A stretch of 59,436 nt of DNA, taken from the IMG/VR virus record IMGVR_UViG_3300027265_000045, positions 1 through 59,436 of that record. One strand, 5' to 3'. The notes beneath the pieces were generated by a model that had not been told where the DNA came from, did no database searches, and saw nothing but the letters and a program-made list of their open reading frames with translations. How positions within the stretch are numbered: position 1 is the first letter of the stretch; each line of letters starts with the position of its first letter. Below, piece after piece: positions 3,011 to 44,964 of the stretch. Source of the stretch: a virus (lineage: Duplodnaviria > Caudoviricetes). The position numbers and the translations under genes are program-made.

Positions 3011-3046
3011 CAAATTAACGTTGCTTAGCAATAAACGCAAAGGACA
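3011..3046 (-). promoter_or_regulatory. Putative phage late promoter (lysis cassette)
   Basis: TGTCCTTT-N20-TTAATTTG; one of six copies with identical spacing. Confidence 0.65.
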
Positions 3047-8267: not shown

Positions 8268-8273
8268 TGATTA

Positions 8274-9317
8274 CTATCTTCCAATAATATTAACAGTATA
8301 TTGATTTGTTGTAGGAGCTACATTAACTGAAACCGTAACAGTAGTTGTTGAAGTTATATAGACCTCACACTGCACTTCCTCAAAAGTTGTGGTGTTGTAA
8401 ACTGAAACTATTACCTCTCGGGTAATTAGTCCATGTGTAAACACAAATGATGTTAAAGTTCCGTTACCGAATGCTGCACTATACGTTTTTGCTGCTGCTC
8501 CAAGTTTTTGTGTAAGTGTAGCCGGAGTTACCGCTCTTGTAGCATCAGTACCGGTATTAACCTCGGACTGAGTTGCAAGTTCGATAATACCTTGTGCTGT
8601 TTCACTTGCTGAAACAATATCAGGTATGTTTTTATTAACTACTGTCCAGTGCGATTCAAGAGTAGGAGAGTCCTGATTTGCAATAATCATATCACCGATA
8701 GCAACACCAGTTGTGAAGAAGGTTCCTGCAACAGTTACCACATAAGTCCAGCCGTTTTTGATACCGGCAATAGGCGTAGCATCGAGCAAAGGTGTATTGG
8801 TAGCGGCATCGTAGCCCCCTTTATTAACGAGAGCACCACTGATAAGGCTGTTAACTCCTGCAACAAGATTATCCACATAAGTCTTCACCGCCAATTGTGA
8901 ACTTATCTTTGTATTAACTGCTCCGGCTCCTCCAAGAGTTACATCTGTATCGGCAAGCATAATTAATACTTGTAATACGGTCAAATCGATAGGAGCAGCT
9001 GCACTACCGGTATTGTTACCTTTAATGGTATTGGCCGCCATGTTTGCCATCTTGGCGTTTGTAACAGCACTGTTTGCAATTGTTTGGGCCCCATCTCCCG
9101 CACTTGTCACATCGCCCGAGTGGTTTGGATGTACATAAGGAAAGGTCTTCCATGCGGATCCAGTCCAAACATACAACTTTGCATCTGCAGTATTGTAATA
9201 AATAAACCCGGCATCCCCCGCTGTAAGCGTTGGGCTTGTAGCCAGGTTCTGAATTTTTTGATTGAGCATTTGATTCTTGTTCAAATCAATGTCAACGAGA
9301 AATGATTTCTTTGCCAT
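8274..9317 (-). CDS. Tail fibre-like protein
   Basis: ASETAQGIIELATQSEVNTGTDATRAVTP fibre repeat; IYYNTAD..LYVWTGSAW motif. Confidence 0.7.
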   Translation of the reverse strand: MAKKSFLVDIDLNKNQMLNQKIQNLATSPTLTAGDAGFIYYNTADAKLYVWTGSAWKTFPYVHPNHSGDVTSAGDGAQTIANSAVTNAKMANMAANTIKGNNTGSAAAPIDLTVLQVLIMLADTDVTLGGAGAVNTKISSQLAVKTYVDNLVAGVNSLISGALVNKGGYDAATNTPLLDATPIAGIKNGWTYVVTVAGTFFTTGVAIGDMIIANQDSPTLESHWTVVNKNIPDIVSASETAQGIIELATQSEVNTGTDATRAVTPATLTQKLGAAAKTYSAAFGNGTLTSFVFTHGLITREVIVSVYNTTTFEEVQCEVYITSTTTVTVSVNVAPTTNQYTVNIIGR

Positions 9318-9323
9318 GTCGGT

Positions 9324-9680
9324 TTAATTTAAATCAGCAAATCCGGAAAAGGCTGCTGAAAAGGTTATTGTTAAATTGTTTTGATCTATGTAGTCAATTT
9401 CTCCTTCGTGTTGCGATCCTGCCGAATCTATAACCGTAACCGAGGGATATTTATTAAGGTTATGTTCAATTGTCCATACCGTTGATGGCAGGTTTTGATT
9501 GTGCCTGTAATACTTATCATTCCCAGACCCATACTCAACTATAGTTTCAATACCTCCAACTACCTGCTTCCCATATAACTTATTATCAGCTATGTTTATC
9601 AGGATCTCACCATCTCTTATATCCGATACTACCGGAACTTTCCCTGGAACATTGCTACGCTTATGTTGTACTCTATTCAT
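9324..9680 (-). CDS. Small tail/fibre adaptor protein
   Basis: KRSNVPGKVP...DGEILINIADNKLY motif; WTIEHNLNKYPSVTVID beta domain. Confidence 0.6.
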   Translation of the reverse strand: MNRVQHKRSNVPGKVPVVSDIRDGEILINIADNKLYGKQVVGGIETIVEYGSGNDKYYRHNQNLPSTVWTIEHNLNKYPSVTVIDSAGSQHEGEIDYIDQNNLTITFSAAFSGFADLN

Positions 9681-9997
9681 TAATAAGTTCCTCCATCTAT
9701 CGCATCTGTGAATGCCATTGCCCCAGTTGGCACATCTGTTGTAATTAGTTTCCCCCTATCAGCTTCAGCAACAGGAGCATGATCGAGCAGGGAGGTAATA
9801 AGGTGTACGCGGTCGTGCAGCTGTGCCGGGTTAATGCTGCGACCAAGGCATTCAACCGACTTGGATCCGTCTGCATTTACTTTAAGCCCATAAAACAAAG
9901 CATCACGGCGGTTGTAACCCAAACCTGTATCAGTTGTAAGCAACTGATTAACCGTAGGCACCCGTTCTGGTACATTTGATATGTGAATAATGCTCAT
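9680..9997 (-). CDS. Small tail-associated protein
   Basis: SNVPERVP motif resembles the neighbouring gene; ends in IDGGTY. Confidence 0.55.
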   Translation of the reverse strand: MSIIHISNVPERVPTVNQLLTTDTGLGYNRRDALFYGLKVNADGSKSVECLGRSINPAQLHDRVHLITSLLDHAPVAEADRGKLITTDVPTGAMAFTDAIDGGTY

Positions 9998-11142
9998 GCA
10001 GTTTCAATGGTTTGTAAATATGCGTATTCGTACTCCAGTTCAGCATCATACTGGTATATATTATCATGTATAACCGGCAAACTAAGGTCATGAAAAACAA
10101 TAGGGTGCAGTATGCTCCCCTGCAGTTCGTATGCTTCCAAAAAATCCATATAAGAAAGCCATTGCATCTGCAATTTGCTTAAATGCCCAGTGTTGGCTTT
10201 TACCACATCCTCGTTTTCGTTTTTCCACGAAATCTTATCAGGTAGTATTTGCCCGTCAGTACGCGCAATTTCTATCGTGATTTTGTTGTTTTGTTCGCCT
10301 TTGCCGGTGCATCTTACAATTTCGAGCAAACCAAATGGATTCTTCACATAAAGTATTCGAGTATTATCATAGTAAGTTGCATCAGGTTCAAATGTGTAAA
10401 CCTTGCTTATCACCGTAGTGCCGGTTTTAATTACAACCGAATACGATGCCAGGGTTTTATCGGCATAAGCCTCAGCCATTACCAGCGCAATGCCCAGCTG
10501 CGTGTAACCACAGGGGAAATAAACAAGCTGCATATATTCAACGCCTGTAACCGTATTTACCACGGCATTATCAACGCTGGTGCCATCGGTGAAATTAAAA
10601 GTAACCCGGGCGGCAACTGAAATAGGTGTAATACTTTGTACCTGCAGGAAATTTAAAAATTCCGGCTGATCAACGCCTACTTTCTTCGATTCGCTATCAG
10701 GCCACCATGTAAGGCAACTTTTTGTTGTAATAAGGTAATTGAGTAAACTGCTATATGAAGTATAAAATGCTTTGCTTCGCGACTTTGGAATTAGCGCATC
10801 AAGCAAATAGAAAGGGCCTTGATCAACCAGGTCAAAAGTATCGACAGGCGGATCACCGGCCCATTCAACAAAGTCAAAAGTTACAGGCAAAGGCACATCG
10901 CTGTACACTTCGGCTACGCTCCCGGTTTTATGTCGTGTTGTAATCAATCCCTGCAAGTAATCACTGAGCTCAAAACTTGCCTTTTTATCAGCATCGGCCT
11001 GTATGCTATCGGCAGCAGCCTGACCGGTTACACCAGCAGCAATGCGAAGCGGTGTGCCTATGCTATCGCTCTGCAAAACAAAAACTACCGGCTGTCGGGC
11101 CATAAGTAATGCGGGTGGTTGCTGAATAATTGATAATGACAT
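9994..11142 (-). CDS. Distal tail / minor tail protein
   Basis: Directly after the tape measure gene; NPFGLLE..CTG motif. Confidence 0.55.
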   Translation of the reverse strand: MSLSIIQQPPALLMARQPVVFVLQSDSIGTPLRIAAGVTGQAAADSIQADADKKASFELSDYLQGLITTRHKTGSVAEVYSDVPLPVTFDFVEWAGDPPVDTFDLVDQGPFYLLDALIPKSRSKAFYTSYSSLLNYLITTKSCLTWWPDSESKKVGVDQPEFLNFLQVQSITPISVAARVTFNFTDGTSVDNAVVNTVTGVEYMQLVYFPCGYTQLGIALVMAEAYADKTLASYSVVIKTGTTVISKVYTFEPDATYYDNTRILYVKNPFGLLEIVRCTGKGEQNNKITIEIARTDGQILPDKISWKNENEDVVKANTGHLSKLQMQWLSYMDFLEAYELQGSILHPIVFHDLSLPVIHDNIYQYDAELEYEYAYLQTIETA

Positions 11143-11146
11143 GGTG

Positions 11147-11182
11147 CAATATTAATGTGATGGGTTGTTTGAGCAAAGGACA
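11147..11182 (-). promoter_or_regulatory. Putative late promoter (tail tip and fibre genes)
   Basis: TGTCCTTT-N20-TAATATTG. Confidence 0.65.
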
Positions 11183-16315: not shown

Positions 16316-17151
16316 ACACCAAAGCTTGCAATTGTGTGATCAGTTGAAAACCCTGACGTTTCGGCCAGATAATTGGTATATATAGAACTGGCTTTGAACC
16401 CGGCATAATCGTCAACATTATCAATGATGGTTGTACGTGCACGGAATACGCAGCTACAACCTGTTTCGTTGTCGCCGGTTACAAAAGCTGCAAGGCTGAA
16501 CCGCAGATCCTCTATAATTTTAGAATTGGCATCTGAAAGTGTATTGGCTTGTAGCTGGGTAATAATTTCGGTGCTTTGTGCCTGGCTTATTATTGGCTCA
16601 ATACGGTTACGAATTGCCCTGGTAACTTTCGAAATATCTTTGAGCCATTCGAGGCGCGAACCGTCGTACCTGGCATACCTGCGGAACTGGGTAAGGGTGA
16701 AAATATAACTATCGTGATTAATGGTGTAGGCTTTGGCTCCTTTCCAGTCGTCGTAAAAGGTAGCGTTCCCCTCGAGATACTCAAGCAGTAGCTCTATGGT
16801 ATCGCTAAGGCGTGTTTCGAGTCCGCGGATTAGTTTCTCAATACGGTCCTTGGATGCGGGAACTACATTATTACCCTGATCGCTAACTACTGCGAACCCG
16901 GTTTCGGTTTCAACCAGGTCGAGAAACGGGACTGCGTCCACATAGGCTTTATGGGCTACAATGCTTTCGCAATAATTTAAAAGCTTAGCATCGCTGGTGG
17001 GTGCTATTACTTTGTTGTAAAGCGTTTGCCCGATTAGTTCGTTAACCAAATATTGGTTTGCTGTTTCCACATATGGGCTGTAACGGCTAAAATTATCGCC
17101 CTGAATGGTAGCGATATGTTTTTTAATAGTGGCGATATCACTTACTAGCAT
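16312..17151 (-). CDS. Head-tail adaptor-like protein (DUF6712-like)
   Basis: LDLVETETGFAVVS..NVVPASKDRI motif; immediately after the portal. Confidence 0.55.
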   Translation of the reverse strand: MLVSDIATIKKHIATIQGDNFSRYSPYVETANQYLVNELIGQTLYNKVIAPTSDAKLLNYCESIVAHKAYVDAVPFLDLVETETGFAVVSDQGNNVVPASKDRIEKLIRGLETRLSDTIELLLEYLEGNATFYDDWKGAKAYTINHDSYIFTLTQFRRYARYDGSRLEWLKDISKVTRAIRNRIEPIISQAQSTEIITQLQANTLSDANSKIIEDLRFSLAAFVTGDNETGCSCVFRARTTIIDNVDDYAGFKASSIYTNYLAETSGFSTDHTIASFGV

Positions 17152-18499
17152 CAGTAGGGGTATTAAGTTGTTTGCCTGATTTATTTACATCGAGGGTAGT
17201 AAATTCGTAATCCGGAACGGTCCACACTAATTCATTTGGCCATTTGTTAAAGCGTTTCACAAAATAGAGTGGTTTCAAAAGCCTGTCGCGCAATGGAGCC
17301 ATCATGGCGGATTTAATCATGTATTTTTCGCGCACATCGGATCCAGAAAGGCTTCCGGTATTTTTACCGGGAGGCGTTGCAACCAGTTGCGTAAATACGC
17401 CCATGGCATAACTCATTAAGTTTGAAACTTCGCTGGAGTCCTCGAGGAATTCGCCACCTTTAAGGCTGGCCGGAATTTGTTCGATAGTAATATACTTTTC
17501 CTCTACCACGCTATTGCCCGAAGGAGTAAGTGTTTTAAGAGCCATAATTCCTTTGCCGGCATTTTTATCGCTGCCAAGGAAATCGCGGAAACGCTGTTTT
17601 TCCAGCTCCTTACGCGCTATAACCTTTTCGGGGTTGGTGGTATCGATTTTTTCGGACTTAAAAATCTCATCCCAATATTTATTTGAGATGTAAATAATGT
17701 AACGGATGGCAATGCCTTGTTTCATGAGGAGTTTTTTGAATTCCCAAAGCATCTGACTGTAATCGTATGATCCTGATTTGAAAATACTCCAGAAGGGAGG
17801 CTCCTGGTAGTATGTTTTTCCCGGAGTAGGAAAGTTGATAGGAATAATAAAACGGGCATCGCCAATTCTTACATTGCGGTTCTGTATACGGTTAGTAAGG
17901 TCAGCATATGGATTGTACCGGTCGAGTACATTGGTAATAATTGTATTGTCAGGATTGGCATGTTTGGTATCGCCACTCCAATATGGCGAATATCCGTGCT
18001 TGATTATATTACCTGTTGTTCTGTCGGAAATTGCCCATCGGCTAAAAGTAGCCTCTTTGTGCCGTAGCGAGTAAACAGACTGCATATCGCGGGTAAGGAT
18101 AATTTCGGGGAACGTGTTGTAAAACGCACACATATCAGTACATTGCTCGAGGAAATAACCGGAGATATCGTTATCCTCGCAAAAATTTAATACACGTTCG
18201 TCAGTACATTCCTTGAGATATGAATCTTTTCCTTCAACCACTTTTATCATAGGCTTTGGACCCTGCCCGTAAGCCAGCTTTACATTATGATCGAGGTTAG
18301 CGGCAACAACTTCGCTTTTGCTTATTTTACGCATCACATGCTCGGGCAAATCGTTATCGCAACCCCATGGAACAAACAAAGTATTACCAACGTGAACCGT
18401 GCTTTGCGGCACTTCGAAAGCATCGGACGAATCGGGCGCAAACAAGGCCTGGTATTCGGGGAATACCGATATACCACCAATATCCATAATATCGTTCAT
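17138..18499 (-). CDS. Portal protein
   Basis: 453 aa; VPWGCDNDLP, YYQEP, SGSDVREKY motifs resembling Bacteroidota phage portals. Confidence 0.75.
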   Translation of the reverse strand: MNDIMDIGGISVFPEYQALFAPDSSDAFEVPQSTVHVGNTLFVPWGCDNDLPEHVMRKISKSEVVAANLDHNVKLAYGQGPKPMIKVVEGKDSYLKECTDERVLNFCEDNDISGYFLEQCTDMCAFYNTFPEIILTRDMQSVYSLRHKEATFSRWAISDRTTGNIIKHGYSPYWSGDTKHANPDNTIITNVLDRYNPYADLTNRIQNRNVRIGDARFIIPINFPTPGKTYYQEPPFWSIFKSGSYDYSQMLWEFKKLLMKQGIAIRYIIYISNKYWDEIFKSEKIDTTNPEKVIARKELEKQRFRDFLGSDKNAGKGIMALKTLTPSGNSVVEEKYITIEQIPASLKGGEFLEDSSEVSNLMSYAMGVFTQLVATPPGKNTGSLSGSDVREKYMIKSAMMAPLRDRLLKPLYFVKRFNKWPNELVWTVPDYEFTTLDVNKSGKQLNTPTDASK

Positions 18500-19333: not shown

Positions 19334-19369
19334 CTAAATTAATTGGATTGGGATGGAGAGTAAAGGACA
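19334..19369 (-). promoter_or_regulatory. Putative late promoter (secreted protein)
   Basis: TGTCCTTT-N20-TAATTTAG. Confidence 0.6.
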
Positions 19370-20890: not shown

Positions 20891-21277
20891 TTAGTTTTCC
20901 GATCCATTAAATGGTCGCTTGAGTAGAAAGTGATAGACGTTTGTATTTCCCATAGTAATAGTGTAAGCATTAACAAACTCCCATCCATATCCATTCATGT
21001 AGTTGAGCGCATCAACCATTGACTCTAAAGTAATTGGTTGCCCTTTTTCGTCAACCAATCTCATTCGGCTCATCCATTTCCTTTCTTGCCCAAAATCAAC
21101 ATCAATTGTTACCTTCTGGCTGAATAACTTTGACGTACCAACTATCAAGCAATACTCTTCTGTTCGATTAAAGTCCCCTTCCTTTATTGCTGAAACGGTT
21201 TGCCCGGTCTTTACCTGTTGGGCGAATGATGTACAATACATAAATGTTACAAGTAATAAAATAAATAATTTCTTCAT
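20891..21277 (-). CDS. Exported protein (moron)
   Basis: Signal peptide MKKLFILLL; MVDALNYMNGYGWEFVNAY motif; AT-rich. Confidence 0.65.
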   Translation of the reverse strand: MKKLFILLLVTFMYCTSFAQQVKTGQTVSAIKEGDFNRTEEYCLIVGTSKLFSQKVTIDVDFGQERKWMSRMRLVDEKGQPITLESMVDALNYMNGYGWEFVNAYTITMGNTNVYHFLLKRPFNGSEN

Positions 21278-21352
21278 GATATAAGGATTTATTGGTTTGT
21301 AGAACAAAGGTATAATTATTGAGCAATCAATGCATCATTAAAATGTACTATA

Positions 21353-21844
21353 TCAATCATCATCATCATCAATGGGATCATTCACTACCTTACAGTTATC
21401 AGAGTATCTAATATTAAATACTGTAATAATCTTTTCAGCAAGTTCATCAGTAATGCCCAGGCATTTGGCAGCAAAATCTATAATTTGTTTTTCTTTATCT
21501 GTTACATCTCCATCAACATATATTGATTCAACTGCTAATGTAAATATCATTGGCTTGAAATCTTCATCAATATACTTAACAGATTCCCGGATTAAAGCTT
21601 CAGACCCATATTTATGTATGGCAGTAAACGATCTTTTATAATGATAAATTATTTGTATTCCCTGAAAAAACTTAATGAATACTAATTGCCTCATCAGTAA
21701 GTCAGTTTCAATTTCTGATACATCACCATCTGCATTGATTACACCTAGTAATAATGATATCCAGGCTTCGTGCTCGGATGCTGGTACATAAACGTCAGGT
21801 GCTGGTCTCTCTGGTTGTTTAAATAGATTGTCAAATAGTCCCAT
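21353..21844 (-). CDS. TerB-family protein
   Basis: ADGDVSEIE and VDGDVTDKEKQII..AKCLGI paired TerB-like motifs; AT-rich moron. Confidence 0.75.
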   Translation of the reverse strand: MGLFDNLFKQPERPAPDVYVPASEHEAWISLLLGVINADGDVSEIETDLLMRQLVFIKFFQGIQIIYHYKRSFTAIHKYGSEALIRESVKYIDEDFKPMIFTLAVESIYVDGDVTDKEKQIIDFAAKCLGITDELAEKIITVFNIRYSDNCKVVNDPIDDDDD

Positions 21845-22033
21845 GATATAAATGTTTAATTGGTTAGGCATCTAAATTAATCAAATAGGTAATTGCTACG
21901 CACGAAAGCACCCAACGCAGTGCATTATTTAAAATCATTCTATATAAAAACATGCTGGCATATTACGTGTGGGGGTAAAATGGCAATTGCCGAACCGGTT
22001 CAGCGCGGTGCGGGGTCTCGAAGCTGAAAAAGA

Positions 22034-22084
22034 TAAAATTCCTGCGTGCTGTCAGCGTAATTTGGCTGACAATCAGGAATTTTA
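22034..22084. other. Long imperfect hairpin downstream of the type IV operon
   Basis: TAAAATTCCTG..GTCAGC-loop-GCTGAC..CAGGAATTTTA. Confidence 0.6.
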
Positions 22085-22184
22085 CTTTTTATTTAAGGGA
22101 AATGTTTGTGATGGAATAAAAATGCAATAAAAAAACAGCCGGAAGGGGCGGTTAATTAATTAATGTTCAAGGGATTTTATCAAC

Positions 22185-22511
22185 TTATAGGTTGATTTTC
22201 CGTTTTAACCGGATCGATTGATTTATCTTATGCAACTTATACCTCGATTTGTTTTTCAATCGCCATTTCTTAACTTTTATTCCTGATTTAGTTTTATCAG
22301 TAATAATAAAGGCAGCGTTTTCAACCTCGAAATTTCTGATAATATACAATTCATTCTCTGTATAGCGGCGCAGTAAAGTATAGTTGTTTCTTTCAATAAA
22401 CTCATAAATTGCCCGTATGGATCTGTTTACCAAGCGGGCAATTTCGTCAATGCTTAACAGGGTAATGTTTTCCCATACTTCCCGCTTTTCGCGTTCCGTC
22501 CACCGTCTCAT
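22185..22511 (-). CDS. HTH/Myb-like DNA-binding protein, last gene of the type IV operon
   Basis: ATGA overlap with the csf3 stop; RWTEREK and RYTENEL repeats; SIDEIARLVNRSIRAI HTH. Confidence 0.6.
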   Translation of the reverse strand: MRRWTEREKREVWENITLLSIDEIARLVNRSIRAIYEFIERNNYTLLRRYTENELYIIRNFEVENAAFIITDKTKSGIKVKKWRLKNKSRYKLHKINQSIRLKRKINL

Positions 22512-23191
22512 ATATCCGGCATTTTGCATTTAAAAATATGGCGTTGATTCCAGTAGCTGGGGCGGATGCCATAAAGGAATCCTTCGCCCTGCACAGGTAC
22601 CGGGCGCATAAGGCGGTTACCGTTTCCGCGTATGCTCCAATCTTCAGGCCAGTCGGTTACTTCCCAGCGTAGCACCGAACCCCATCCCTGCGCTGTTTTC
22701 TTTCCGATGTGCGTACAGAACCGGAGCAGGCTTTCTATTTCAGGCTTCAATCCTAACGCATACCACTCAACATATAGCGCATGACGATAATACACATCAA
22801 CGTGATAAGCCTTGTACTGCCCACGGCTGGTATCGACACGCCCTTTCTTATCCTGGATATAATCGACATACTGCAAATCAAAGCGTTTAACGTAGAAGGT
22901 TTTATCCTCGATTACAGCCGCAGGCCACTGCGCGAAAGAGCATGCATAAAACCATGCATCATTTTTAGGACCTGATTTTTTGAAAGGCAGTGTAATATTC
23001 TGCCCTTCGCGCACATTGCTTTCGCCCGGGAGGCTATATATCTTTTCGCCAATTTGCATGCGTACCAGGTGATAATACAATATGCCATCCAACGGAAGGA
23101 ACTGATCGCTGATAACACCCGCCTGCAAATAAGCGCGGATCCTGAGCGGGCGGAAATCTTTTGTTTCGGAAATAAAGTTTTGCTGATCCAT
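22508..23191 (-). CDS. csf3: Type IV CRISPR Csf3 (Cas5-like RAMP)
   Basis: PLRIRAYL..LPLDGIL N-terminus, GQYKAY, HIGKKTAQGWGSV glycine loop, IRPSYW. Confidence 0.85.
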   Translation of the reverse strand: MDQQNFISETKDFRPLRIRAYLQAGVISDQFLPLDGILYYHLVRMQIGEKIYSLPGESNVREGQNITLPFKKSGPKNDAWFYACSFAQWPAAVIEDKTFYVKRFDLQYVDYIQDKKGRVDTSRGQYKAYHVDVYYRHALYVEWYALGLKPEIESLLRFCTHIGKKTAQGWGSVLRWEVTDWPEDWSIRGNGNRLMRPVPVQGEGFLYGIRPSYWNQRHIFKCKMPDI

Positions 23192-23863
23192 TTATGTAAA
23201 GTATTTAGCGTCGGGCAATAATTTTAATAAACTATTGTATGCTGCAATATCTCTTGCTTTGAGTGATTGTATTGATTCGCTGGCAAACTTGCGGGGGATG
23301 CCTGAAGTAGTTCTTGCCTCAAATCCTTCATTTAAATATTTGCTTAATACTGGCAATCTGTTTGAAAGGCAATATGTTGCAATATCATTTGTTGACCAAT
23401 CCGACATAGGACAAATTCGATATTTACCCTCTTTCATTTTATAAAAATTACCTGCCGTTTTTAATGAAATACGGCGTCCGGCGCTTTCATCTTTCCTCAA
23501 ACCAACAAAATAAGAATCATGTTCCAGGTTGGAAGTAGCTGTTGATACGGTTCGTTTTTTTGAACCTGTTTCGAGCCATCCCAATACGGTAATTTGCCTC
23601 AAATTTATATCGCCCCACTGGGCTATAACTTCAGCATAATTATCTACCAGATCAGTTTCTATACGTCTCACAAAAATAGCCTGCACATCAGGCAATTGCT
23701 TCAATACAAGATGCAGCATCACAGCGCTATCCTTCCCGAAACTACAGGCAACATAGGGATTTTGTACCTGCTTTAACGCCCAGGCAATAAACCTTTCCGT
23801 TTTTGTTACCAGGTACCGGAACTCATGTGTTTTCGCGTACAATAAAGCGGTTCGTTCGTCCAT
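23192..23863 (-). CDS. cysH: CysH-like PAPS reductase family protein (type IV-B associated)
   Basis: VACSFGKDS PP-loop, VGLRKDESAGRR, CPMSDWS; lies between csf2 and csf3. Confidence 0.85.
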   Translation of the reverse strand: MDERTALLYAKTHEFRYLVTKTERFIAWALKQVQNPYVACSFGKDSAVMLHLVLKQLPDVQAIFVRRIETDLVDNYAEVIAQWGDINLRQITVLGWLETGSKKRTVSTATSNLEHDSYFVGLRKDESAGRRISLKTAGNFYKMKEGKYRICPMSDWSTNDIATYCLSNRLPVLSKYLNEGFEARTTSGIPRKFASESIQSLKARDIAAYNSLLKLLPDAKYFT

Positions 23864-24804
23864 TATTTCATCGAGGCTAAAAACTTACGGATACCATCCC
23901 CGTTTTGATCCAGGTGATCCTTGTATTTTGTTCCCATCTTTACATCCAGTTCGGTTCCCTGAAGGTGTACACGGCTGTCGATTTCAATCCAGTTATCGAG
24001 CTGTACGGCAATTTCGCCGTGACCGGTTGCCGATTTACCGCCTATACATGCCGATTTTGAGAACTCGATAAGGGTCGAAAGAAAGGCTTCGAACTCCACG
24101 TCGGTAACATCTTCCAGTACTATTTTCCAATAAAACTTGGTTCCGGCCGCTATGGTTTCGACATTGTACATCATTTGCTGAGGGGCTTCTTTTTTTACCG
24201 GAAGTTCGGCGCCGTGTTCATCAAGCTGCTTCGTGATCAGGCCACGGACCCGGTCGTTCTTTTCATCATCGCGACGGGTAAACATTTCGGTTTGGCAATA
24301 TTCCCAAATGCTTTCGACTGATGCCGGTTCAGGAATAAAACGTGCCGGTACCAGGTGTTTTGTTTCGCTGCAAATCGGTAATAGTTTACCGATCTTCATT
24401 TTACCCGGCATTATTACATTGCCGGCAGCTCCGCCAAACAGGCCAATAAGCGGAACCAGTTCGCGCATATCGCGGAAATGTTTAATATCCAATCCTTCGC
24501 CTCCTGTGCTTACCAGGCTTCCGCCCGAAAACAGGAAGTAAAAAGCCTGTAACGGCAATCCTTTTACTTCGCCCGATTCCTCGTTAACGCCATATCCAAG
24601 CTGTTTGAGCATACTGAACATGCCACGATCGCGCAATATGCCGCGTATGGCATTGCCGCTGATAACCGGCACACGCTCTACTTTTCCCGAGGGTTGTACA
24701 AACTTTTCGCGCCGAAGCTGGGTAACCGTTCCGTTACGTTCGCCGCCATTGTGGGTAATGCTGCTCAGGGCAGTTACAATTCCTTCTAATAAATATGTTC
24801 TCAT
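23863..24804 (-). CDS. csf2: Type IV CRISPR Csf2 (Cas7-like backbone RAMP)
   Basis: TALSSITH, VPVISGNAIRGILRD, LFSGG, LIGLFGG, FTRRDD, IGGKSATGHG G-loop. Confidence 0.9.
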   Translation of the reverse strand: MRTYLLEGIVTALSSITHNGGERNGTVTQLRREKFVQPSGKVERVPVISGNAIRGILRDRGMFSMLKQLGYGVNEESGEVKGLPLQAFYFLFSGGSLVSTGGEGLDIKHFRDMRELVPLIGLFGGAAGNVIMPGKMKIGKLLPICSETKHLVPARFIPEPASVESIWEYCQTEMFTRRDDEKNDRVRGLITKQLDEHGAELPVKKEAPQQMMYNVETIAAGTKFYWKIVLEDVTDVEFEAFLSTLIEFSKSACIGGKSATGHGEIAVQLDNWIEIDSRVHLQGTELDVKMGTKYKDHLDQNGDGIRKFLASMK

Positions 24805-25214
24805 AATTCAGGTTCGTTTAATTCGTCAATGTTTGAAGGTTCAAGAAATTCGACCGATGCTTTGTAATTGTCCTTACGATCCTGGTTCATCAGCCGGGTT
24901 ATCATTACCAGGTATGTAGTTTCGTCGCGGAGCCAGTTAAGCACATCGCTGTCAAGTCCGCACTCAACCACGGTGCGTATCAGCGCCATATACTGCGCTT
25001 CGAGCGTTACCGGGATCCGGTTTTTGAAGTTGGTAAGGAACGTCGTAAGCTTCGCCGTATATGCGGCTGAGCGTATAGCGTTTTCAAATTGTTCCCATAT
25101 TTCGCGTTTGTAACGATCCTTATATGAATCGTCAACGCATCGCCATAAAGGCCACAGAAGGTTTTCGGCAACCATCTGCTGAGTCATGCTCACTTCTTTG
25201 TGTACATCAGCCAT
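24801..25214 (-). CDS. csf4: Type IV-B small subunit (Cas11/Csf4-like)
   Basis: Small helical protein between csf1 and csf2 (IWEQFENAIRSAA, LNWLRDET); start could be 25187. Confidence 0.65.
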   Translation of the reverse strand: MADVHKEVSMTQQMVAENLLWPLWRCVDDSYKDRYKREIWEQFENAIRSAAYTAKLTTFLTNFKNRIPVTLEAQYMALIRTVVECGLDSDVLNWLRDETTYLVMITRLMNQDRKDNYKASVEFLEPSNIDELNEPEL

Positions 25215-25840
25215 GTTGTGAAATTGAATATTTGTGAATTACGGTATGATTTTATTTCATCTTCAAGCGCTTTCCATACAGGCAACCCGGCATTCATAAC
25301 CCGGTACGATAAGTAATTGCCTGATATGATTTCGCCCTGTGTAAATCCTATGCTGAGCAGTTTCATAAACCGTTCGTGCAGGAAACAGAATGTTTTTACA
25401 TCAGGCGCAATCTGCATTTCTTCCAGTTGCCACATTCCAGGCCTATGCTTGAAAAGCAGGTGTTTTTGTCCGCTGTCGGAAAGGCATATAATTTCGTCGG
25501 TACCTGCAACCAGGATACCGACTATACGCTCTTTGTCGGCCTTGGTCATAATAAACCATTTCCCATCAGCAACTACATGCGTATAGGTACGGAAACGCTG
25601 GGGTTTATCGCGCCCGATTAATTGCTGAACCAATACAGATGATTCGTCGAAGCAGAAAAGCGCCTCGTTCGAAATAATAGTTCCGGGAAGTAGTGAAGCA
25701 TGATCGGTGAAAGTATCGCGTACCCATTTCGCGAAAGGTAAACCGGTACTTTGTTTTCCGGTTATCCGGCAAATACCGGGAGTATCGCCGTAGGTGAGCT
25801 TATTCGCTCCAAGTTGATAGATTCGTTCGCAGGGGTGCAT
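25190..25840 (-). CDS. csf1: Type IV Csf1 (Cas8-like large subunit)
   Basis: CRITG remnant Zn-finger, DTFTDH, SDSGQKHLLFK motif; first gene of the RAMP operon. Confidence 0.7.
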   Translation of the reverse strand: MHPCERIYQLGANKLTYGDTPGICRITGKQSTGLPFAKWVRDTFTDHASLLPGTIISNEALFCFDESSVLVQQLIGRDKPQRFRTYTHVVADGKWFIMTKADKERIVGILVAGTDEIICLSDSGQKHLLFKHRPGMWQLEEMQIAPDVKTFCFLHERFMKLLSIGFTQGEIISGNYLSYRVMNAGLPVWKALEDEIKSYRNSQIFNFTTWLMYTKK

Positions 25841-25868
25841 TATAAAAAACTAAGGTTCGATTACTCTG

Positions 25869-25904
25869 CGAATGTAGTAACCGAACCTTTTTAACGAAAG
25901 GACA
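25869..25904 (-). promoter_or_regulatory. Putative late promoter of the type IV operon, overlapped by an inverted repeat (25852-25889)
   Basis: TGTCCTTT-N20-TACATTCG. Confidence 0.6.
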
Positions 25905-25909
25905 GATAT

Positions 25910-26260
25910 TTACTCGTCCTCGGCGAAGTCTGGAGGAAGTGTTGGTTCAATAAAATGAGGTGATTCGCGGATCATATCCCAGCACTTTTCAAATATTTCG
26001 AGAGTAGGTTTAATATCTTCGTATTGCTTTCTGTTTTCTTCGTCACCATCCTCGAGCCATTGCCACTGAATAATTTTGCTGGCGATCATGGATTCAACCT
26101 CTTTTACATCGCGTGAAAATTGTGATGAATCGCGCAAATGTATTGTTAATATATTTTCGATAAGGTGGTTGAAATTTTCACCTGGTTCCTGCTGAGCTTG
26201 TTTTTCAAGTTCTTTAACTATCCATTCCGGAAGCCGTATTGATTTAAGTTGCTTTGCCAT
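25910..26260 (-). CDS. Ribbon-helix-helix regulator
   Basis: KSIRLPEWIVKELEKQAQQE..NFNHLIENIL RHH pattern. Confidence 0.7.
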   Translation of the reverse strand: MAKQLKSIRLPEWIVKELEKQAQQEPGENFNHLIENILTIHLRDSSQFSRDVKEVESMIASKIIQWQWLEDGDEENRKQYEDIKPTLEIFEKCWDMIRESPHFIEPTLPPDFAEDE

Positions 26261-26388
26261 GTTCTGTTAGTTATAAGTATTTATAAAAATGAGCTGATCC
26301 CCACACCTGACTAGCTCTTACCCCAACCTTTTTAATTCAAACTCAATTAGCAATAATTGACTTTTCACAGGGGTTCCCGAAAAGAAAT

Positions 26389-27225
26389 TTATTTTTTTTC
26401 AACGTAACACACCCATGGATTTGTAGCCCATAGATCGAAGTGAAATATATAATTTTCAGTTTCTTCACTGGCATTGGTACCTTCAATATGTGGTACACCA
26501 GGGTATTCTGCAAATATTTTTTTCTGCTCATCTTCATCAAGTTCAACACAATCAGGTTCGCCAAAATCAGTATCTAAAACAACTGTTTTGAAGTTGTGAG
26601 AATCGTGGTAAGTCCAGGCTGTTACCTCTGTGTGAGTTTCGTTTTCTTCACGCCATTTGTTGAAAAATTCAATGACTTTATCCCATTCTGTAATTTCATC
26701 TTTCATTATTCTGTATGCCACAGATCCGGAGGGCTCGATAAGCATTTCATAAAGACTTCTGTGACTTAATTCAAGTTTATCGAGAACATCTTCATTAAAA
26801 CCAAACATTTCAGAAGCCTCGGAATAGAAGTCTGAAAAAATGCAGGAGTCGGTATTATTGAATGAATAACATCCGGCATTATTGCAATCGACCTGAACAC
26901 CATAATTGCCATAAGCCTTGCAAAAATCCATTTTTTCAAAATTGCTGCGTTTTGTAATCCGAATGCGATCTTCAGTATCAGCATCAAATGAAACGACGAT
27001 GTATTTTTCAAACAGATCTTCTACCCTGATTTCCTCTAACCAGGTATTAAATTCTGCTGTCTGATCATCGCTCAATGATGAGTCAAAATCGTTATCGAAT
27101 TCTTCATCAAATAACCAGCGGAAGAAATTTGGATCAGACTGTGATTCAGCATAAACATATTCATATAATGAAATTTCCCCGCGATTTTCATTCAATGATT
27201 TGATTTTGTTTTCTAGGTTTTTCAT
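26389..27225 (-). CDS. Highly acidic hypothetical protein
   Basis: 278 aa, D/E-rich, AT-rich DNA. Confidence 0.7.
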   Translation of the reverse strand: MKNLENKIKSLNENRGEISLYEYVYAESQSDPNFFRWLFDEEFDNDFDSSLSDDQTAEFNTWLEEIRVEDLFEKYIVVSFDADTEDRIRITKRSNFEKMDFCKAYGNYGVQVDCNNAGCYSFNNTDSCIFSDFYSEASEMFGFNEDVLDKLELSHRSLYEMLIEPSGSVAYRIMKDEITEWDKVIEFFNKWREENETHTEVTAWTYHDSHNFKTVVLDTDFGEPDCVELDEDEQKKIFAEYPGVPHIEGTNASEETENYIFHFDLWATNPWVCYVEKK

Positions 27226-27300
27226 GACTTTAAATTTTTAAAAGTTAGATTAATGAATTCCCCACGGGTGCGATTAAATGCTGTTTGTTTGATGATGTAA

Positions 27301-27322
27301 ATGTAATACAATATGTAATACA
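27301..27322. promoter_or_regulatory. Tandem ATGTAATACA repeats, candidate RHH operator
   Basis: ATGTAATACA-AT-ATGTAATACA upstream of the acidic protein-RHH pair. Confidence 0.45.
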
Positions 27323-27465
27323 CCCTACAAAATAGTGAAATTTATTTTCATTCTAAATAAGGAAGAGTTGCAAGTATGAGTGTACCCACCCCTGCCCTCC
27401 CTTTCAAAAGGGATGGGGTGGATTGTGCTGGAGGGTAGATGGTAAATGCTAGTATCTGTTTTTAT

Positions 27466-29085
27466 TTATAACCATCCTGATCCGCCATTAGTACCAGATG
27501 AAATATTATTGTAGGGATAAAAGAACATGCCGAGGAGTAAAGTATCGAAACCATCGGTACCATCGGTGCGATGCTCAAGGAGATCTTCCTCGGTTTCGGC
27601 AAGTTTTTCGCCTGATTTATCTTTCTCGAAGCCTTTGGGCCCCACTTTTACGCCGCAATGTTCGAGGGCCAGCTTGAGGGCTTCGTTGTTGGGGGCGTTG
27701 ATCATGGGCATAAGGTATTTCTGGCCTTTCATAGCCTGGTCGAGGATGATGTATTTTTCGCGGTGCTTAATGGGATTGCCCATGTGCATACGGGTAACGG
27801 ACCAGCCTTTTTTTGTGAACTGGTCGCAGATGGCTGAGGCAAAATCATCTTCGTTTAAAGCATAGTTGGAGCCGATGGCGGTGGTATCGAAATAGTAAAT
27901 TACTTCCCGGGTTAAATGTGTACGGTAATAGTCGCAGAAATCATCAACCAGCTCCCGTAGCTTGCGCTGGTATTTTACATAAAAGCTTTTCAATACCATT
28001 GCTTTAATGCCTTGCTGCTGGCCACAAACGAGCCAGTTGATATTGGCATTGTAGTCGAATGCTACACAGATGGGCCGGGTAAGATCCACATCCGCATCAT
28101 GGGCGCAGGATTGCTGCTGTGCTTTTTCGAAATCGTAATCGAGGTTTTGAAGGAATGAATTGTCGAAAGCTGTGTAAAAGTGGACGGTTTCCTTTAATGC
28201 CGGGTAAAAACCATCTTTGAGTTTCCCGGGACGAATGCAAAGGATGGAAGTTTGGAAAACCAGTGGCGGAAGATCCCGTTTCATCTGGGCAATATACTTT
28301 TTGCCAAGTAATTCAATATTTTCGATGCTTGACCACTCGCGGTAATACACGGCAATACTGCGGAACTGGGTAAGGCGCAGGGTGTGCTCTTTGAGTTTGC
28401 GGATATTCCATTCCGTTCGTGGTTGCTGCTTTAACCGGTAGATTTCGCAAATAAGCCATTTTATCTGATCGATCAGCTTCGGATCCATAAGTTTCTTGTA
28501 ACCGAGGAACCACGATCCTTTTTTACTGGTTGGCATATCGCTGGTGAACAGCATGGAGTTTAACCAGGGCGAATTGCGCCACGGACCTTTGTACCCGCCA
28601 TTAGCCGGAAAGGTTTCGTCCTTTAGTTTGTCGAAATCGAGAAACTTGGCTTCGTCGCCTAACAGGTACTGAAGTGTAAGTGAGTTGGAGCTGCCTGGTA
28701 TATCCTGACTTATGAGATACTGAACAGATCCGTTGTACCAGCTTACCACATGATCGTAACTGATGGGTTTTATAACGGGCTCCTTGAATCCGGCAGCTTT
28801 GGGAGGTTTGCGGCCGATAAAGAAATGAATATTGCGGTAATAGCCCATATCCTCCAAAGATTTGAGCGAACCGGGCAGTGTACGCGATAAAAGCTGCTGA
28901 AAGGTACTTCCTATTATTCCGCCACCTGATTGTGGCATATGCTGCACATTACGCAGCAACCAGGGCGCAATAATGCCGTGAGTCTTACCCAGGCGCCGAC
29001 CGGCCACAATAACCGAAGTATGAGCGGCAATATACCGGAATTCGAGCTGCGGCTTATTGTAGTATATCTTCTTCGTTTCGGTCAT
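27466..29085 (-). CDS. terL: Terminase large subunit
   Basis: AGRRLGKT Walker A, LLGDEAKF Walker B, AFDYNANINW nuclease motif, TDGTDGFD. Confidence 0.88.
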   Translation of the reverse strand: MTETKKIYYNKPQLEFRYIAAHTSVIVAGRRLGKTHGIIAPWLLRNVQHMPQSGGGIIGSTFQQLLSRTLPGSLKSLEDMGYYRNIHFFIGRKPPKAAGFKEPVIKPISYDHVVSWYNGSVQYLISQDIPGSSNSLTLQYLLGDEAKFLDFDKLKDETFPANGGYKGPWRNSPWLNSMLFTSDMPTSKKGSWFLGYKKLMDPKLIDQIKWLICEIYRLKQQPRTEWNIRKLKEHTLRLTQFRSIAVYYREWSSIENIELLGKKYIAQMKRDLPPLVFQTSILCIRPGKLKDGFYPALKETVHFYTAFDNSFLQNLDYDFEKAQQQSCAHDADVDLTRPICVAFDYNANINWLVCGQQQGIKAMVLKSFYVKYQRKLRELVDDFCDYYRTHLTREVIYYFDTTAIGSNYALNEDDFASAICDQFTKKGWSVTRMHMGNPIKHREKYIILDQAMKGQKYLMPMINAPNNEALKLALEHCGVKVGPKGFEKDKSGEKLAETEEDLLEHRTDGTDGFDTLLLGMFFYPYNNISSGTNGGSGWL

Positions 29086-29665
29086 TGTCAACATCAGTTA
29101 TATCCAGGTAATCTATATCCTCAATTTCGATATCGCCTTTGTATTTTTCGTAGAGTTTTTTAATTTCCTCTTCAGCATTTTCCATCGGGATGGCTCCCAG
29201 TACGCTGACATCGTTAGTAGGATCGATAGGGATAGGAACAATATCGTCCCAGGGGATTTGCTCTCCGTCGTCCTGATCGAGTTTATTGTATTTGGCCAGT
29301 TTGTCGATAGCCATAATGCGTTCCTTCATCAGATCGTCGCCGGCATTTTTGCATTGCTGTATAGCGAGTTTCAATTCTTCGGTAACAATATACCGTATCC
29401 ACTCCTTACCGGCTGCTTTTATGTTGGGAAGTATAATTTTAACGTTGGCAATATCGCGGTAAGCCTGTGATTGACTGATTCCATATTCGTTAATAAGCTG
29501 ATCGCGCAAAACACTATCGGAAAGGGAAGGAGTTTCGAGGCATTGTGTAAACGCGAAACGATATCGAACCACCTGCATTTGTTCGACTGGCGAAAGGTGA
29601 CTGATATCAACCTTATCGGCAAACATCACTTCCTGAAACTTGTCCAGGTTCGATTTTCTACTCAT
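29054..29665 (-). CDS. Putative terminase small subunit
   Basis: ISQSQAYRDI HTH; overlaps the terL start. Confidence 0.6.
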   Translation of the reverse strand: MSRKSNLDKFQEVMFADKVDISHLSPVEQMQVVRYRFAFTQCLETPSLSDSVLRDQLINEYGISQSQAYRDIANVKIILPNIKAAGKEWIRYIVTEELKLAIQQCKNAGDDLMKERIMAIDKLAKYNKLDQDDGEQIPWDDIVPIPIDPTNDVSVLGAIPMENAEEEIKKLYEKYKGDIEIEDIDYLDITDVDNDRNEEDILQ

Positions 29666-37982: not shown

Positions 37983-38018
37983 CAATGTTACTCCGGCACC
38001 GCTAATTGCTAAAGGACG
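37983..38018 (-). promoter_or_regulatory. Putative late promoter (head operon)
   Basis: CGTCCTTT-N20-TAACATTG. Confidence 0.65.
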
Positions 38019-38974: not shown

Positions 38975-39090
38975 ATATGCAATAGGAAATTTATAAAATA
39001 TAGTGCAATTTTAAAAAAATGAGAGGAGTACTGGTTAATAATCATGGTTGTTTCGCTTGCAAGTAGGACTTAGGGAAAAACGCGAATATT

Positions 39091-39417
39091 TTAGTACGTT
39101 AGTACTTTAGTACGGAAATATTTATAATTGATTGATTAATAGATAATTGAACTTTAGTGCTCTGCACTAGTTTGAAATTAGTACGGATTAGTGCAGATTC
39201 GTGCAATTTTAGTACGGAAAATAGCCTTTGTAAGTAATTAAAGATCAAAAAGATAGACAAAAATAATTTTAGTACGTACTATTGCACGAAAATTTACTCT
39301 ATTTTAACTAAGTATACTTTCAAAAAAAAGAAAATATTAATAAAAAGTATATATATACCTATATATAAGCGAATTACACAAAATTTTGTTTTTATTTCCC
39401 GGCCTGCTTTGCACTAA
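39091..39417. repeat. AT-rich iteron region, putative replication origin
   Basis: About a dozen TAGT(A/G)C or TCGTGC units in direct and inverted orientation in the largest intergenic gap. Confidence 0.6.
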
Positions 39418-39503
39418 AGTTCTTTTTCAAAGATAAGGGGTGAAGGGGGAGCGGCGAAAAATCGGCTCCATGGTAAGAGTATTGCTTCACTACGTTCGCA
39501 AAT

Positions 39504-39618
39504 AAAGGTGTGCTTCGCACGTATAATAACCCCTCTGTCCTGCGGACATCTCCCCTTTGGGCTTCGGCTACGCTCAGCCACCAATGGGAGAATTAAAAGG
39601 TGTGCTTCGCACGTATAA
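39504..39618. repeat. Two 23-bp direct repeats flanking REP-like hairpins
   Basis: AAAGGTGTGCTTCGCACGTATAA at 39504-39526 and 39596-39618, 69 bp apart. Confidence 0.7.
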
Positions 39619-39622
39619 ATGA

Positions 39623-39647
39623 ATAAAGCCGCTGTGAGCGGCTTTAT
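39623..39647. terminator. Terminator of the early/middle operon
   Basis: ATAAAGCCGCT-GTG-AGCGGCTTTAT. Confidence 0.7.
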
Positions 39648-39691
39648 GGGGAGCGGAACTGTATTAATGCCAATTAACCTTTAATAACGGC

Positions 39692-43341: not shown

Positions 43342-43647
43342 TTAAGTAAACAGGTATCTTTCGTTTTCTTCTTTAATGGTGGTTGTGAATGGGAACCCTG
43401 AGGCGGGAACCTGCTCAATTACTTCGATCAGTCCGGATGAACCGGTGAAAACGATGTGCTTTTCGTTGTTGAATGATATTTGAAGGTGCAGGCATTTTCC
43501 TGAGCCACGGTCCTTAAACACTTTGGATTCCTCAATTTTAAATGCGTGTACCACGATTTCGCGGTTAAGTATTTTCGACATTTTGATTTTGTCGCCCTCA
43601 AAATTCTTTGAGGCTGTAGCAATGTTGAATTGACTGAAACTATTCAT
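43342..43647 (-). CDS. Small protein translationally coupled to the DGR RT
   Basis: ATG at 43647 overlaps the RT stop (ATGAATAG); 101 aa, beta-rich. Confidence 0.7.
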   Translation of the reverse strand: MNSFSQFNIATASKNFEGDKIKMSKILNREIVVHAFKIEESKVFKDRGSGKCLHLQISFNNEKHIVFTGSSGLIEVIEQVPASGFPFTTTIKEENERYLFT

Positions 43648-44593: not shown

Positions 44594-44849
44594 CTCTTTT
44601 GTTTAACAATTACATTTACCATATTGACAAGTTTATAACCCCCGTTACATTCTTCACATTGAAGAAACCAAGGCCAACAATGACAACATGCCTTGCAATT
44701 CTTTTCTTTCTTTTTCATTGTATATTAAATCAAAAGGAGGTAAAACACTTTGCCTGATTAAAAATCGTTTTCCCGCTCAGGTACCAACGCTTTTTTAGAG
44801 TTTACTTTATTTTTTTGCCGTGTGGGCAGGGTTTACGCCGCGTTAATAA

Positions 44850-44930: not shown

Positions 44931-44964
44931 TGTCAGACAATCGCAGCATACAACCGGTACTGTT

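Follow-up and report, generated by a model that had tools for sequence, protein, structure and literature searches.

A type IV-B Cas gene cassette between the terminase and predicted portal genes of a provirus, preceded by a promoter-like signal

The Cas gene cassette and its place in the provirus

The 59,436-base IMG/VR record IMGVR_UViG_3300027265_000045 (a single contig, analysed in its entirety and referred to here as the window) carries on its minus strand, from 25840 down to 22185, six tightly packed open reading frames (ORFs) of which the first five, to judge from the sequence matches of their products (Table 1), almost certainly make up a genuine, intact, array-less CRISPR-Cas effector module of type IV-B. 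A first-pass annotation of the DNA had proposed just such a set of six abutting or overlapping genes, and all six were found where it had placed them, five of them with clear family matches; the successive junctions are overlaps of 25, 4 and 1 nt, an abutment, and an overlap of 22 nt. (ORFs were called as the longest frame, so that some N-termini will be too long and starts are approximate.) Hidden Markov models for Csf1, Csf2, Csf3 and Cas11 (the PADLOC type IV set) and for CysH (PF01507) gave matches. Since RAMP proteins were matched both at 23863-24804 (Csf2) and at 22508-23191 (Csf3), where absence of a RAMP fold would have counted against the proposal, the type IV-B identification stands.

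The best supported of these assignments is the backbone protein Csf2. It matched NCBIfam TIGR03115 at 4.5e-24, which is under that model's cut-off, and a 17-sequence Csf2 profile found as its top solved match the type IV-B Csf2 of 7JHY (5.3e-30), followed by a type IV-C Cas7c (3.4e-25) and a type IV-A Csf2 (4.7e-08), nearness to a subtype being judged here from the ranking of profile matches, not from a tree. The alignment of the 17 sequences has 58 invariant columns, many of them RAMP glycines. Csf3 matched TIGR03116 at 1.6e-16, again under the curated cut-off, and its profile matched the solved Csf3 7xfz_B at 0.0064. The csf1 product had no match in Pfam or NCBIfam, and a sequence search for solved relatives of Cas11 found none.

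The fourth gene encodes a Cas-associated CysH-like protein (CasCysH) in which the PP-loop reads SFGKDS and the C-terminal catalytic cysteine motif is absent; its best solved relative is a PAPS reductase (6vpu, 1.8e-08). Among 42 members of the cassette-linked CysH-like family an SxGKDS loop is present in 40 and the ECxxH/CGxH motif in none, and no cysteine is conserved among the 42. A retained PP-loop together with loss of the catalytic cysteine is the signature of the Cas-associated CysH branch (PMC8175902), and this agreement with the published description supports the type IV-B identity. It led Taylor et al. to propose that ATP alpha-hydrolase or AMPylation chemistry replaces sulphur chemistry in CasCysH (PMC8175902). 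The early region of the window contains a second, unrelated gene of the PAPS reductase family (40321-41541, minus strand, 406 aa; phrog_12882, 1.3e-164), with a weak radical-SAM-like ORF nearby (43332-42502).

The sixth gene encodes a small protein whose sequence matches are weak and of helix-turn-helix (HTH) type (UPF0122, 0.0045). An AlphaFold2 model of its 114 residues (predicted local distance difference test score, pLDDT, 79) consists of two three-helix bundles, for which the top Foldseek matches were bipartite HTH DNA-binding domains, including that of Tc3 transposase (E 0.16) and 2LVS (E 0.41), none of them significant. 2LVS, an entry titled CRISPR repeat binding protein, was also the top profile match, again short of significance (E 0.015). 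The modelled fold class is thus clear, with no family that can be named. Homologues adjoin or lie within the cassette in five other loci and occupy three positions: after csf3 (L001, L042), before csf1 (L043, L049), and between csf1 and cas11 (L006). That the linkage persists across three arrangements speaks for the gene being a true part of the cassette, in this subclade at any rate. The protein is likely to be a DNA-binding regulator or specificity factor.

The first-pass annotation saw no CRISPR array, cas1, cas2, cas6 or dinG in the 59 kb, and every search made bears this out. Repeat scans of the record found no array-like repeats; no Rfam family reached its gathering score in the window, or E<=1 in 21300-27600; and a six-frame search found no Cas1, Cas2, Cas6, DEAD_2 or Csf4 (models PF01867, PF09827, PF01881 as the sole Cas6 model, PF06733 and TIGR03117; models for Csf5 and RecD were not searched). 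The absence of an array applies to the provirus: the flanking host DNA lies outside the record, and a host array is possible.

IMG/VR classes the record as a provirus, with a CheckV completeness of 100%. It begins at the ATG of an integrase gene (phrog_1, 8.5e-23), has nearly all its genes on the minus strand, and yielded no terminal repeat and no tRNA; a nucleotide search of the window against phage records gave no match. The window's own portal protein is also on record from a contig of 411,880 bp, which implies that the phage was integrated, so that the earlier description of the element as a prophage is well founded. The carrier is an integrated siphovirus-like phage, probably of a Bacteroidota-type host, the host being judged from relatives only.

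The cassette had been described as lying between terminase and portal genes, and this also holds, with the large terminase (TerL) recognized by family profile and the portal by predicted fold. The single TerL sequence had no match in the PDB, and a profile of 15 sequences, with the window's protein as first row, matched the solved large terminase 5oe8 over nearly its full length (1.8e-18). The ORF at 18499-17138 had no match in Pfam, PHROGs or NCBIfam, and hhalign of a three-sequence profile against neighbouring families was equally negative; Atlas gave a weak Phage_portal lead. Its AlphaFold2 model (36-sequence alignment; pLDDT 76, predicted template-modelling score 0.69) had 85 PDB matches at E<=0.001, of which those listed were all portal or neck entries (best E 2.4e-07, TM 0.53/0.60), so that the protein is predicted to fold as a portal. 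The interval between the two genes is 8,966 nt long. Besides the cassette it holds two small ORFs upstream, and TerB-like, lipoprotein-like and anti-repressor genes and small ORFs downstream. One of the neighbours, a 116-aa ORF directly upstream of the cassette (25910-26260, minus strand), has a counterpart at 31% identity in the same place in L001; its N-terminus is ribbon-helix-helix-like by eye, and its family match is weak (YlcI/YnfO, 0.05). The TerB-like ORF just downstream of the cassette (21353-21871; PF05099, 6.7e-06) sits in a stretch of low GC content (0.342 at 21001-22000, against about 0.42 for the record), which suggests separately acquired cargo.

How much of this interval is constant among related phages could be judged from 80 IMG/VR loci with the same portal family (L051-L130; 1.15 Mb). 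TerL and portal were both seen in 59 of them, and the gap between the two genes falls into two classes, measuring 455-592 nt in 31 loci and 1,978-8,195 nt in 28. The closest relative found, L051 (TerL 91% and portal 82% identical), is without the cassette and has in its place a 3.9-kb gap holding anti-repressor genes; indeed, any type IV-B match was found in only one of the 80 loci, and this was a csf3 fragment upstream of a small-terminase-like gene, outside the slot. Among 128 ORFs of at least 90 aa in 24 of the 28 expanded gaps (the near-duplicates L056, L060, L069 and L072 having been dropped), the commonest Pfam families were ArdcN (8), RadC (7), DUF4468 (6), P22_AR_N (5) and Cro/CI-type HTH_3 (4), the remainder including KilA-N, one or two antitoxin-like proteins, one methylase and one PAPS reductase with DUF3440. 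Clusters of ArdC and RadC mark anti-defence islands. Since L051 does not have the cassette and the slot is variable, the cassette is accessory cargo, not a part of morphogenesis, and very probably an exchangeable occupant of a terminase-portal hot spot. The first-pass view of an operon wired into the virion programme was in this respect an overstatement: the slot is a variable cargo island.

Table 1. Positions of the cassette genes, bordering genes and putative control elements in the window
Feature	Position	Strand	Evidence or remark
csf1, small Cas8-like large subunit, 216 aa	25190..25840	-	PADLOC Csf1_0_IV, 5.2e-10
cas11, small subunit, 137 aa	24801..25214	-	PADLOC Cas11_1_IV, 3.9e-24
csf2 / Cas7, backbone RAMP, 313 aa	23863..24804	-	PADLOC Csf2_0_IV, 3.7e-76
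CysH-like (CasCysH) PP-loop protein, 223 aa	23192..23863	-	PF01507, 3.3e-16
csf3 / Cas5, 227 aa	22508..23191	-	PADLOC Csf3_0_IV, 1.1e-47
Small bipartite HTH protein, 114 aa	22185..22529	-	Weak sequence matches; AlphaFold2 model
Large terminase TerL, 542 aa, upstream slot border	27466..29094	-	phrog_2, 9.8e-06 (weak)
Predicted portal protein, 453 aa, downstream slot border	17138..18499	-	AlphaFold2 fold match; own signal copy at 18777-18742
Signal before csf1: TGTCCTTT, 20 nt, TACATTCG	25869..25904	-	Ends 28 nt before csf1 ATG
14-bp hairpin, second box in loop, then T-run, then csf1 ATG	25852..25889	-	dG (folding free energy) -18.2 kcal/mol
Weak hairpin with T7 run after last gene, possible end of transcription unit	22120..22165	-	z -1.78
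Signal copy directly after terminator hairpin, before 154-aa ORF	19334..19369	-	First box and spacing
Signal copy before portal gene	18777-18742	-	First box and spacing
Signal copy between tape-measure gene and next tail gene	11147..11182	-	First box and spacing
Signal copy before lysis cassette	3011..3046	-	Amidase 2285-1809, phrog_822, 7.6e-42
One-mismatch copy CGTCCTTT-N20-TAACATTG before head-protease gene	37983..38018	-	Protease phrog_53, 5.6e-55

A promoter-like signal upstream of csf1 and of structural and lysis genes

Immediately upstream of csf1 lies a bipartite element of the form TGTCCTTT-N20-TAnnnTTnG. The full 36-nt string at csf1 is unique in the window. The first box occurs five times (2.4 occurrences being expected on both strands together), and every one of the five copies falls on the coding strand within a non-coding gap, such gaps accounting for 6.1% of the sequence (P ~3e-8 for all five being so placed). 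Exactly 20 nt after each comes TTAATTTG, TAATATTG, TATCATTG, TAATTTAG or TACATTCG, all resembling TAnnTTTG. The first-pass annotation had reported the motif before the csf1, head, portal, tail-tip and lysis genes. An exact first box at fixed spacing is present before csf1 and the portal, tail and lysis genes; the copy before the head gene is imperfect, with one mismatch. The second half of the shared element is degenerate, which the wording of that annotation already implied.

The consensus for primary-sigma promoters of Bacteroidota comprises a -7 box, TAnnTTTG, and a TTTG near -33, some 19-21 nt further upstream (PMC7366714). The last T's of the first box occupy the place of this TTTG: the -33 equivalents read TTTG twice, TTTA twice and TTTC once (at csf1), with a 19-nt spacer. 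None of the signal sites matched in a scan for the strict consensus TTTG-N18-21-TAnnTTTG, and a sigma-70 scan of the window was uninformative (23 found, 28.5 expected). A position weight matrix, built from the same five sites that it ranks first, had no copy among its top matches in the early region (59436-39000).

Relatives give the signal a wider setting. In L001 (Csf2 66% identical to the window's) and L042 (81%; a contig of a Massilibacteroides metagenome-assembled genome, or MAG), csf1 is preceded by a terminator hairpin, a T-run, TTTGTCCTTT, 20 nt and then TAAACTTG or CATATTTG, with csf1 following 19-31 nt later; in L043 and L049, where the HTH gene precedes csf1, the signal box is upstream of the HTH gene. 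Copies on the coding and opposite strands number 5 and 0 in L001 and 5 and 1 in L042. Across the 80 loci of the portal family, the corresponding figures for the complete bipartite pattern are 33 and 3. Of the 76 of these loci with enough flank, 43 have GTCCTTT no more than 350 nt upstream of their portal gene. By these sequence comparisons, the signal is a family-wide feature of the structural region, of which the cassette appears to make use. The distance from box to ATG at csf1, 19-31 nt in three phages, fits the modal Bacteroides 5' untranslated region of 23 nt (PMC7366714).

The signal is entangled with a terminator, since the second box lies in the loop of the csf1 hairpin, which is followed by a T-run. 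None of 200 shuffled sequences folded as well as this hairpin (z -3.65), and it would act either as an intrinsic terminator against read-through from upstream or as an operator-like inverted repeat. Two further copies, those at 19369 and 18777, directly follow strong terminator hairpins. The hairpin beyond the last gene of the cassette is weak, 11 of 200 shuffles folding as well. The possibility that the csf1 hairpin is a single repeat unit was considered and rejected: it is not repeated in the window, and no such hairpin is apparent downstream of the first box in the sequence upstream of csf1 in L042.

We also draw attention to two features of the window lying well away from the cassette. A non-coding gap of 717 nt at the start of the structural region (38975-39691) contains a pair of exact 23-nt direct repeats, 92 nt apart, along with several tandem repeats of short units, and may be a control or origin region. 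A diversity-generating retroelement occupies 43640-45882 (minus strand): upstream of its reverse transcriptase gene (44593-43640; RVT_1, 4.3e-18) is a gap with the 79-nt template repeat (44928-44850), and near the 3' ends of the ORFs 45399-44965 and 45882-45409 are two variable repeats, whose mismatches with the template fall at template adenines in 16 of 16 and 15 of 15 cases.

A phage-borne type IV-B clade

The window's cassette belongs, on the evidence of its sequence relatives, to a large, mostly unannotated phage-borne clade of type IV-B, which is newly recognized here. Among 5941 word-sharing candidates there were 1173 Csf2 homologues at E<=1e-5, at least 120 of them 58-96% identical, and those among the matches listed were almost all unnamed. 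Pattern scans gave 40 IMG/VR loci and nine contigs from GTDB genomes, the latter labelled Massilibacteroides, Prolixibacteraceae, 'Syntrophomonadaceae' (a 3.7-kb contig), Bacteroidetes, Ignavibacteria, Lewinella, Ardenticatenaceae, Pyrinomonadaceae and Solibacteraceae. When the ORFs of 50 loci and the window were clustered by BLAST, Csf2 was present in 49 sources, Csf1 in 47, Csf3 in 46 and CysH in 40. By tblastn, cysH precedes csf3 in 18 of the 35 loci in which both could be placed and follows it in 17. These counts of loci have not been de-replicated, and L013/L046, L031/L037, L040/L041, L055/L056, L059/L060, L063/L064 and L116/L117 are likely pairs from the same phage.

The flanks of the 50 cassette loci have almost no families in common. 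The large ORFs within 5 kb upstream (n=29) encode chiefly primases, helicases, polymerases and methyltransferases, and a few terminases; among those within 5 kb downstream (n=49) terminase families are foremost (phrog_979 and phrog_2, 10 each), accompanied by portal families. With an iterated terminase profile, TerL was placed downstream of the cassette and on its strand, at a distance of 1.7-6.4 kb, in 12 loci (13 if L028 is counted by its coordinates); it lies upstream of the cassette in the window and L001. It therefore appears from gene content that the cassette is usually located at the junction of replication and packaging modules.

Small arrays accompany two of the relatives. In L032, a 5.1-kb IMG/VR contig, a pair of 29-nt palindromic repeats (positions 126-217) encloses a spacer of about 34 nt and ends 17 nt before csf1; the spacer had no further exact match in IMG/VR, only exact matches having been sought. 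L020, a viral contig, has four 38-nt repeats with spacers of 34-37 nt (937-1195), 7.7 kb upstream of its type IV-B cassette. A simple repeat scan of the remaining cassette loci found no array-like repeats.

One of the loci compared comes from a cultured phage. A search of 50,697 phage records for Csf2 gave a match in Skermania phage SPI1 (KR011061; L002) alone; its orf40-43 correspond by PADLOC to Csf1, Cas11, Csf2 and Csf3, and orf44 to a CasCysH homologue (hhalign 99.8%, 2.1e-28). By these matches SPI1 has a complete type IV-B set at 6840-10473, all five genes of which are annotated as hypothetical; its recognition is likewise new, and our literature search found no paper on this cassette.

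Possible roles, and comparison with known type IV systems

The best overall explanation of these observations, which we hold with moderate confidence, is that the window contains type IV-B accessory cargo with a phage-type lytic promoter and a role in conflict. The cassette would be its own transcription unit. Transcripts arriving from upstream would form the csf1 hairpin with its T-run and stop, and transcription would restart from a Bacteroidota-type promoter with an extended first box; transcripts beginning 5-8 nt after the second box would carry only the 3' arm of the hairpin, and so continue, with a leader of about 22 nt. Because the same type of promoter precedes portal, tail and lysis genes, the lytic cycle, as opposed to lysogeny, is the most likely time for the cassette to be made: judging by the lysis and portal copies, the signal would be off in a lysogen and on during lytic growth, and the cassette would follow it. 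On its sequence and placement, the signal is itself somewhat more likely than not to be a promoter of lytic or late class.

As to what is made, the solved Mycobacterium type IV-B complex is a Csf2-Cas11 filament on heterogeneous non-CRISPR small RNA (PMC7937560; PMC8175902), and by analogy Csf2 and Cas11 would here assemble along small RNA into a filament, with Csf1 and Csf3 as its caps. CasCysH, if it behaves as proposed for its relatives (PMC8175902), would bind ATP and hydrolyse it at the alpha phosphate, no sulphur chemistry being involved. Its neighbours in the slot suggest of the cassette that its assembly would serve the phage against host defences or rival elements, and not in adaptive immunity; a counter-defence or inter-element role is for the present a tentative suggestion. 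More specific, and a good deal more doubtful, is the idea of a lytic-cycle counter-defence machine in which specificity is given by proteins instead of CRISPR RNA (crRNA): the HTH protein, whose top, non-significant profile match was the CRISPR-repeat-binding 2LVS, could guide the filament and the adenylyl-transferase-like CasCysH to particular nucleic acids during packaging. Phage DNA or RNA might then be marked or shielded, or the assembly might enter virions. If true, this would give a Cas effector a new role outside immunity, and subtype IV-B its first function.

Several points weigh against a lytic promoter and a conflict role. The promoter, start site and timing are all deduced from the DNA; a search of sequencing runs for the sequence listed two of DNA and none of RNA. 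The csf1 copy is the poorest of the five, with a first box reading CTGTCCTTT, TTTC at -33 and TACATTCG as its second box, and the bare 7-mer GTCCTTT shows only a mild strand bias across the 80 loci (114 to 83). A hairpin and T-run lie between or over both boxes at the csf1 site and at two sites in L001, so that the signal might instead be a part of terminators. Since the promoter resembles the host's housekeeping type, the lysogen too may express the cassette, and insulated cargo with its own promoter is also typical of morons expressed in lysogeny. 'Guilt by location' with ArdC and RadC is weak functional evidence. Finally, the small arrays of L032 and L020 mean that the array-less condition is not universal in the clade, and the finding of Cas1 somewhere in five of the nine MAGs that host related cassettes, themselves incomplete, neither supports nor excludes a crRNA-related role.

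It follows that other explanations must be weighed. If the cassette were a moron transcribed in the prophage from a housekeeping-type promoter, it might protect the lysogen or prophage from superinfecting phages or plasmids, as has been proposed for plasmid type IV systems. Its insulation on both sides (a hairpin and T-run upstream, a weak hairpin and T7 downstream) would suit this, as would the TerB-like, lipoprotein-like and anti-repressor genes sharing the island, the approximation of the promoter boxes to the host sigma-A consensus (PMC7366714), and the inter-element competition proposed for prophage type IV loci (PMC11656645). We nevertheless think it unlikely: the same extended signal stands at lysis, portal and tail genes, which a stable lysogen must keep off barring some further control, and there is no array to serve as a source of guides for sequence-specific exclusion. 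It is more unlikely again that the TGTCCTTT element is no promoter but either punctuation (a terminator or insulator) or a site for an antiterminator or repressor, the cassette being expressed by read-through from the terminase operon or under other control. Three of the five exact sites in the window (19369, 18777 and csf1) are certainly tied to a hairpin and T-run, at 8551 and 15669 in L001 a hairpin fills the N20 spacer and the T-run supplies the second box, and the inverted repeat of 14 bp at csf1 may serve as an operator. Punctuation would not, however, account for the TAnnTTTG-like box that stands at a fixed 20 nt from the first box in each of the five window sites, two of which (11182 and 3046) are hairpin-free, for the 33 to 3 strand ratio of the bipartite pattern in the family, or for distances to start codons that fit Bacteroides leaders (PMC7366714).

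Two further alternatives concern the protein complex. It might act as an anti-CRISPR sponge, sequestering host crRNAs or other guide RNAs during infection, an idea already in print (PMC7038947; PMC8175902) that accords with the assembly of the solved type IV-B complex on heterogeneous non-CRISPR RNA (PMC7937560; PMC8175902) and with the anti-restriction genes among the slot cargo of relatives. This we regard as improbable, since it leaves the near-invariant CasCysH partner unexplained, and was called unlikely by the authors of PMC7038947 themselves; moreover, Cas1 was found in only five of the nine host MAGs with related cassettes, which are incomplete. That the cassette is a decaying remnant without present function is barely credible: array, nuclease and adaptation genes are indeed absent, but none of the six frames is interrupted and their coupling is tight, the clade is a large one in which conservation is evident, with identities of up to 96% and many invariant RAMP glycines, and the set of five genes is found repeatedly, in two orders, among 35 loci.

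Type IV-B is among the last CRISPR-Cas subtypes lacking a known function, and its biology was still called unclear in 2026 (PMC13676074); earlier work has centred on actinobacterial plasmids. The locus described here stands for a large lineage of phage-borne cassettes with an interpretable context (removable cargo at a hot spot, anti-restriction and anti-repressor neighbours in sister phages, and a signal shared with lysis and structural genes), and which turns the question of function into concrete ones, about late timing, the RNA bound in infected cells and loss on defended hosts, that could be put to SPI1 as a cultured phage. Should the late promoter prove mistaken, the finding would reduce to another prophage locus of type IV-B. 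Such loci are already in print: type IV-B has been said to occur 'sometimes' on prophages (PMC7038947) and type IV on some phages and prophages (PMC11656645), and archaeal viruses with type IV-B have been described, with lytic phages cited (PMC10848311). New here, besides the clade and the SPI1 cassette, is the terminase-portal hot spot and its cargo in this phage family. Our literature search found nothing on a phage-borne Bacteroidota clade of type IV-B, the terminase position or a late-type signal (the locus tables of PMC7038947 and PMC10848311 may include Bacteroidota prophages), and a search on 'type IV-B' from 2023 and on CasCysH found no functional study.

Among known systems, the accessory or anti-defence islands of phages and plasmids with ArdC and RadC genes are alike in position, occupying the same slot in sister phages as self-contained units flanked by terminators, but share no sequence relationship with the cassette. 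The type IV-B systems of actinobacterial plasmids, such as those of Rhodococcus and Mycobacterium, and that of Mycobacterium sp. JS623 (7JHY), have the same set of csf1, cas11, csf2, csf3 and a cysH-like gene; the plasmid systems are likewise without array, Cas6, helicase and adaptation genes, and their CasCysH keeps the PP-loop and is without the catalytic cysteine (PMC8175902). They differ in sequence, the Csf2 copies of 75 PLSDB plasmids (mostly from Rhodococcus and Mycobacterium) being about 30-38% identical to that of the window, and the window differs from them in its provirus carrier, its Bacteroidota-type host, its extra bipartite HTH gene and its own phage-type signal. Skermania phage SPI1 shares the IV-B set, but its Csf2 is 38% identical to the window's, its csf3 comes before cysH, its host is an actinobacterium, and its cassette lies among hypothetical genes upstream of lysin and holin, not between terminase and portal.

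Another comparison is with the type IV-B system of the archaeal 'Fuxiviridae', which is virus-borne, comprises Csf1, Cas11, Csf2, Csf3 and a CysH-like protein of the Cas branch, and for which a counter-defence or inter-element role has been proposed (PMC10848311). The Fuxivirus locus differs in its archaeal host and in having a two-repeat mini-array (PMC10848311); the window has no array, although within its clade L032 has such a mini-array beside csf1. Types IV-A and IV-C share a homologous Csf2/Csf3 backbone with the window's cassette; the features that set them apart, which the window lacks, are DinG, Cas6 and arrays in the one case and a Cas10-like HD subunit in the other.

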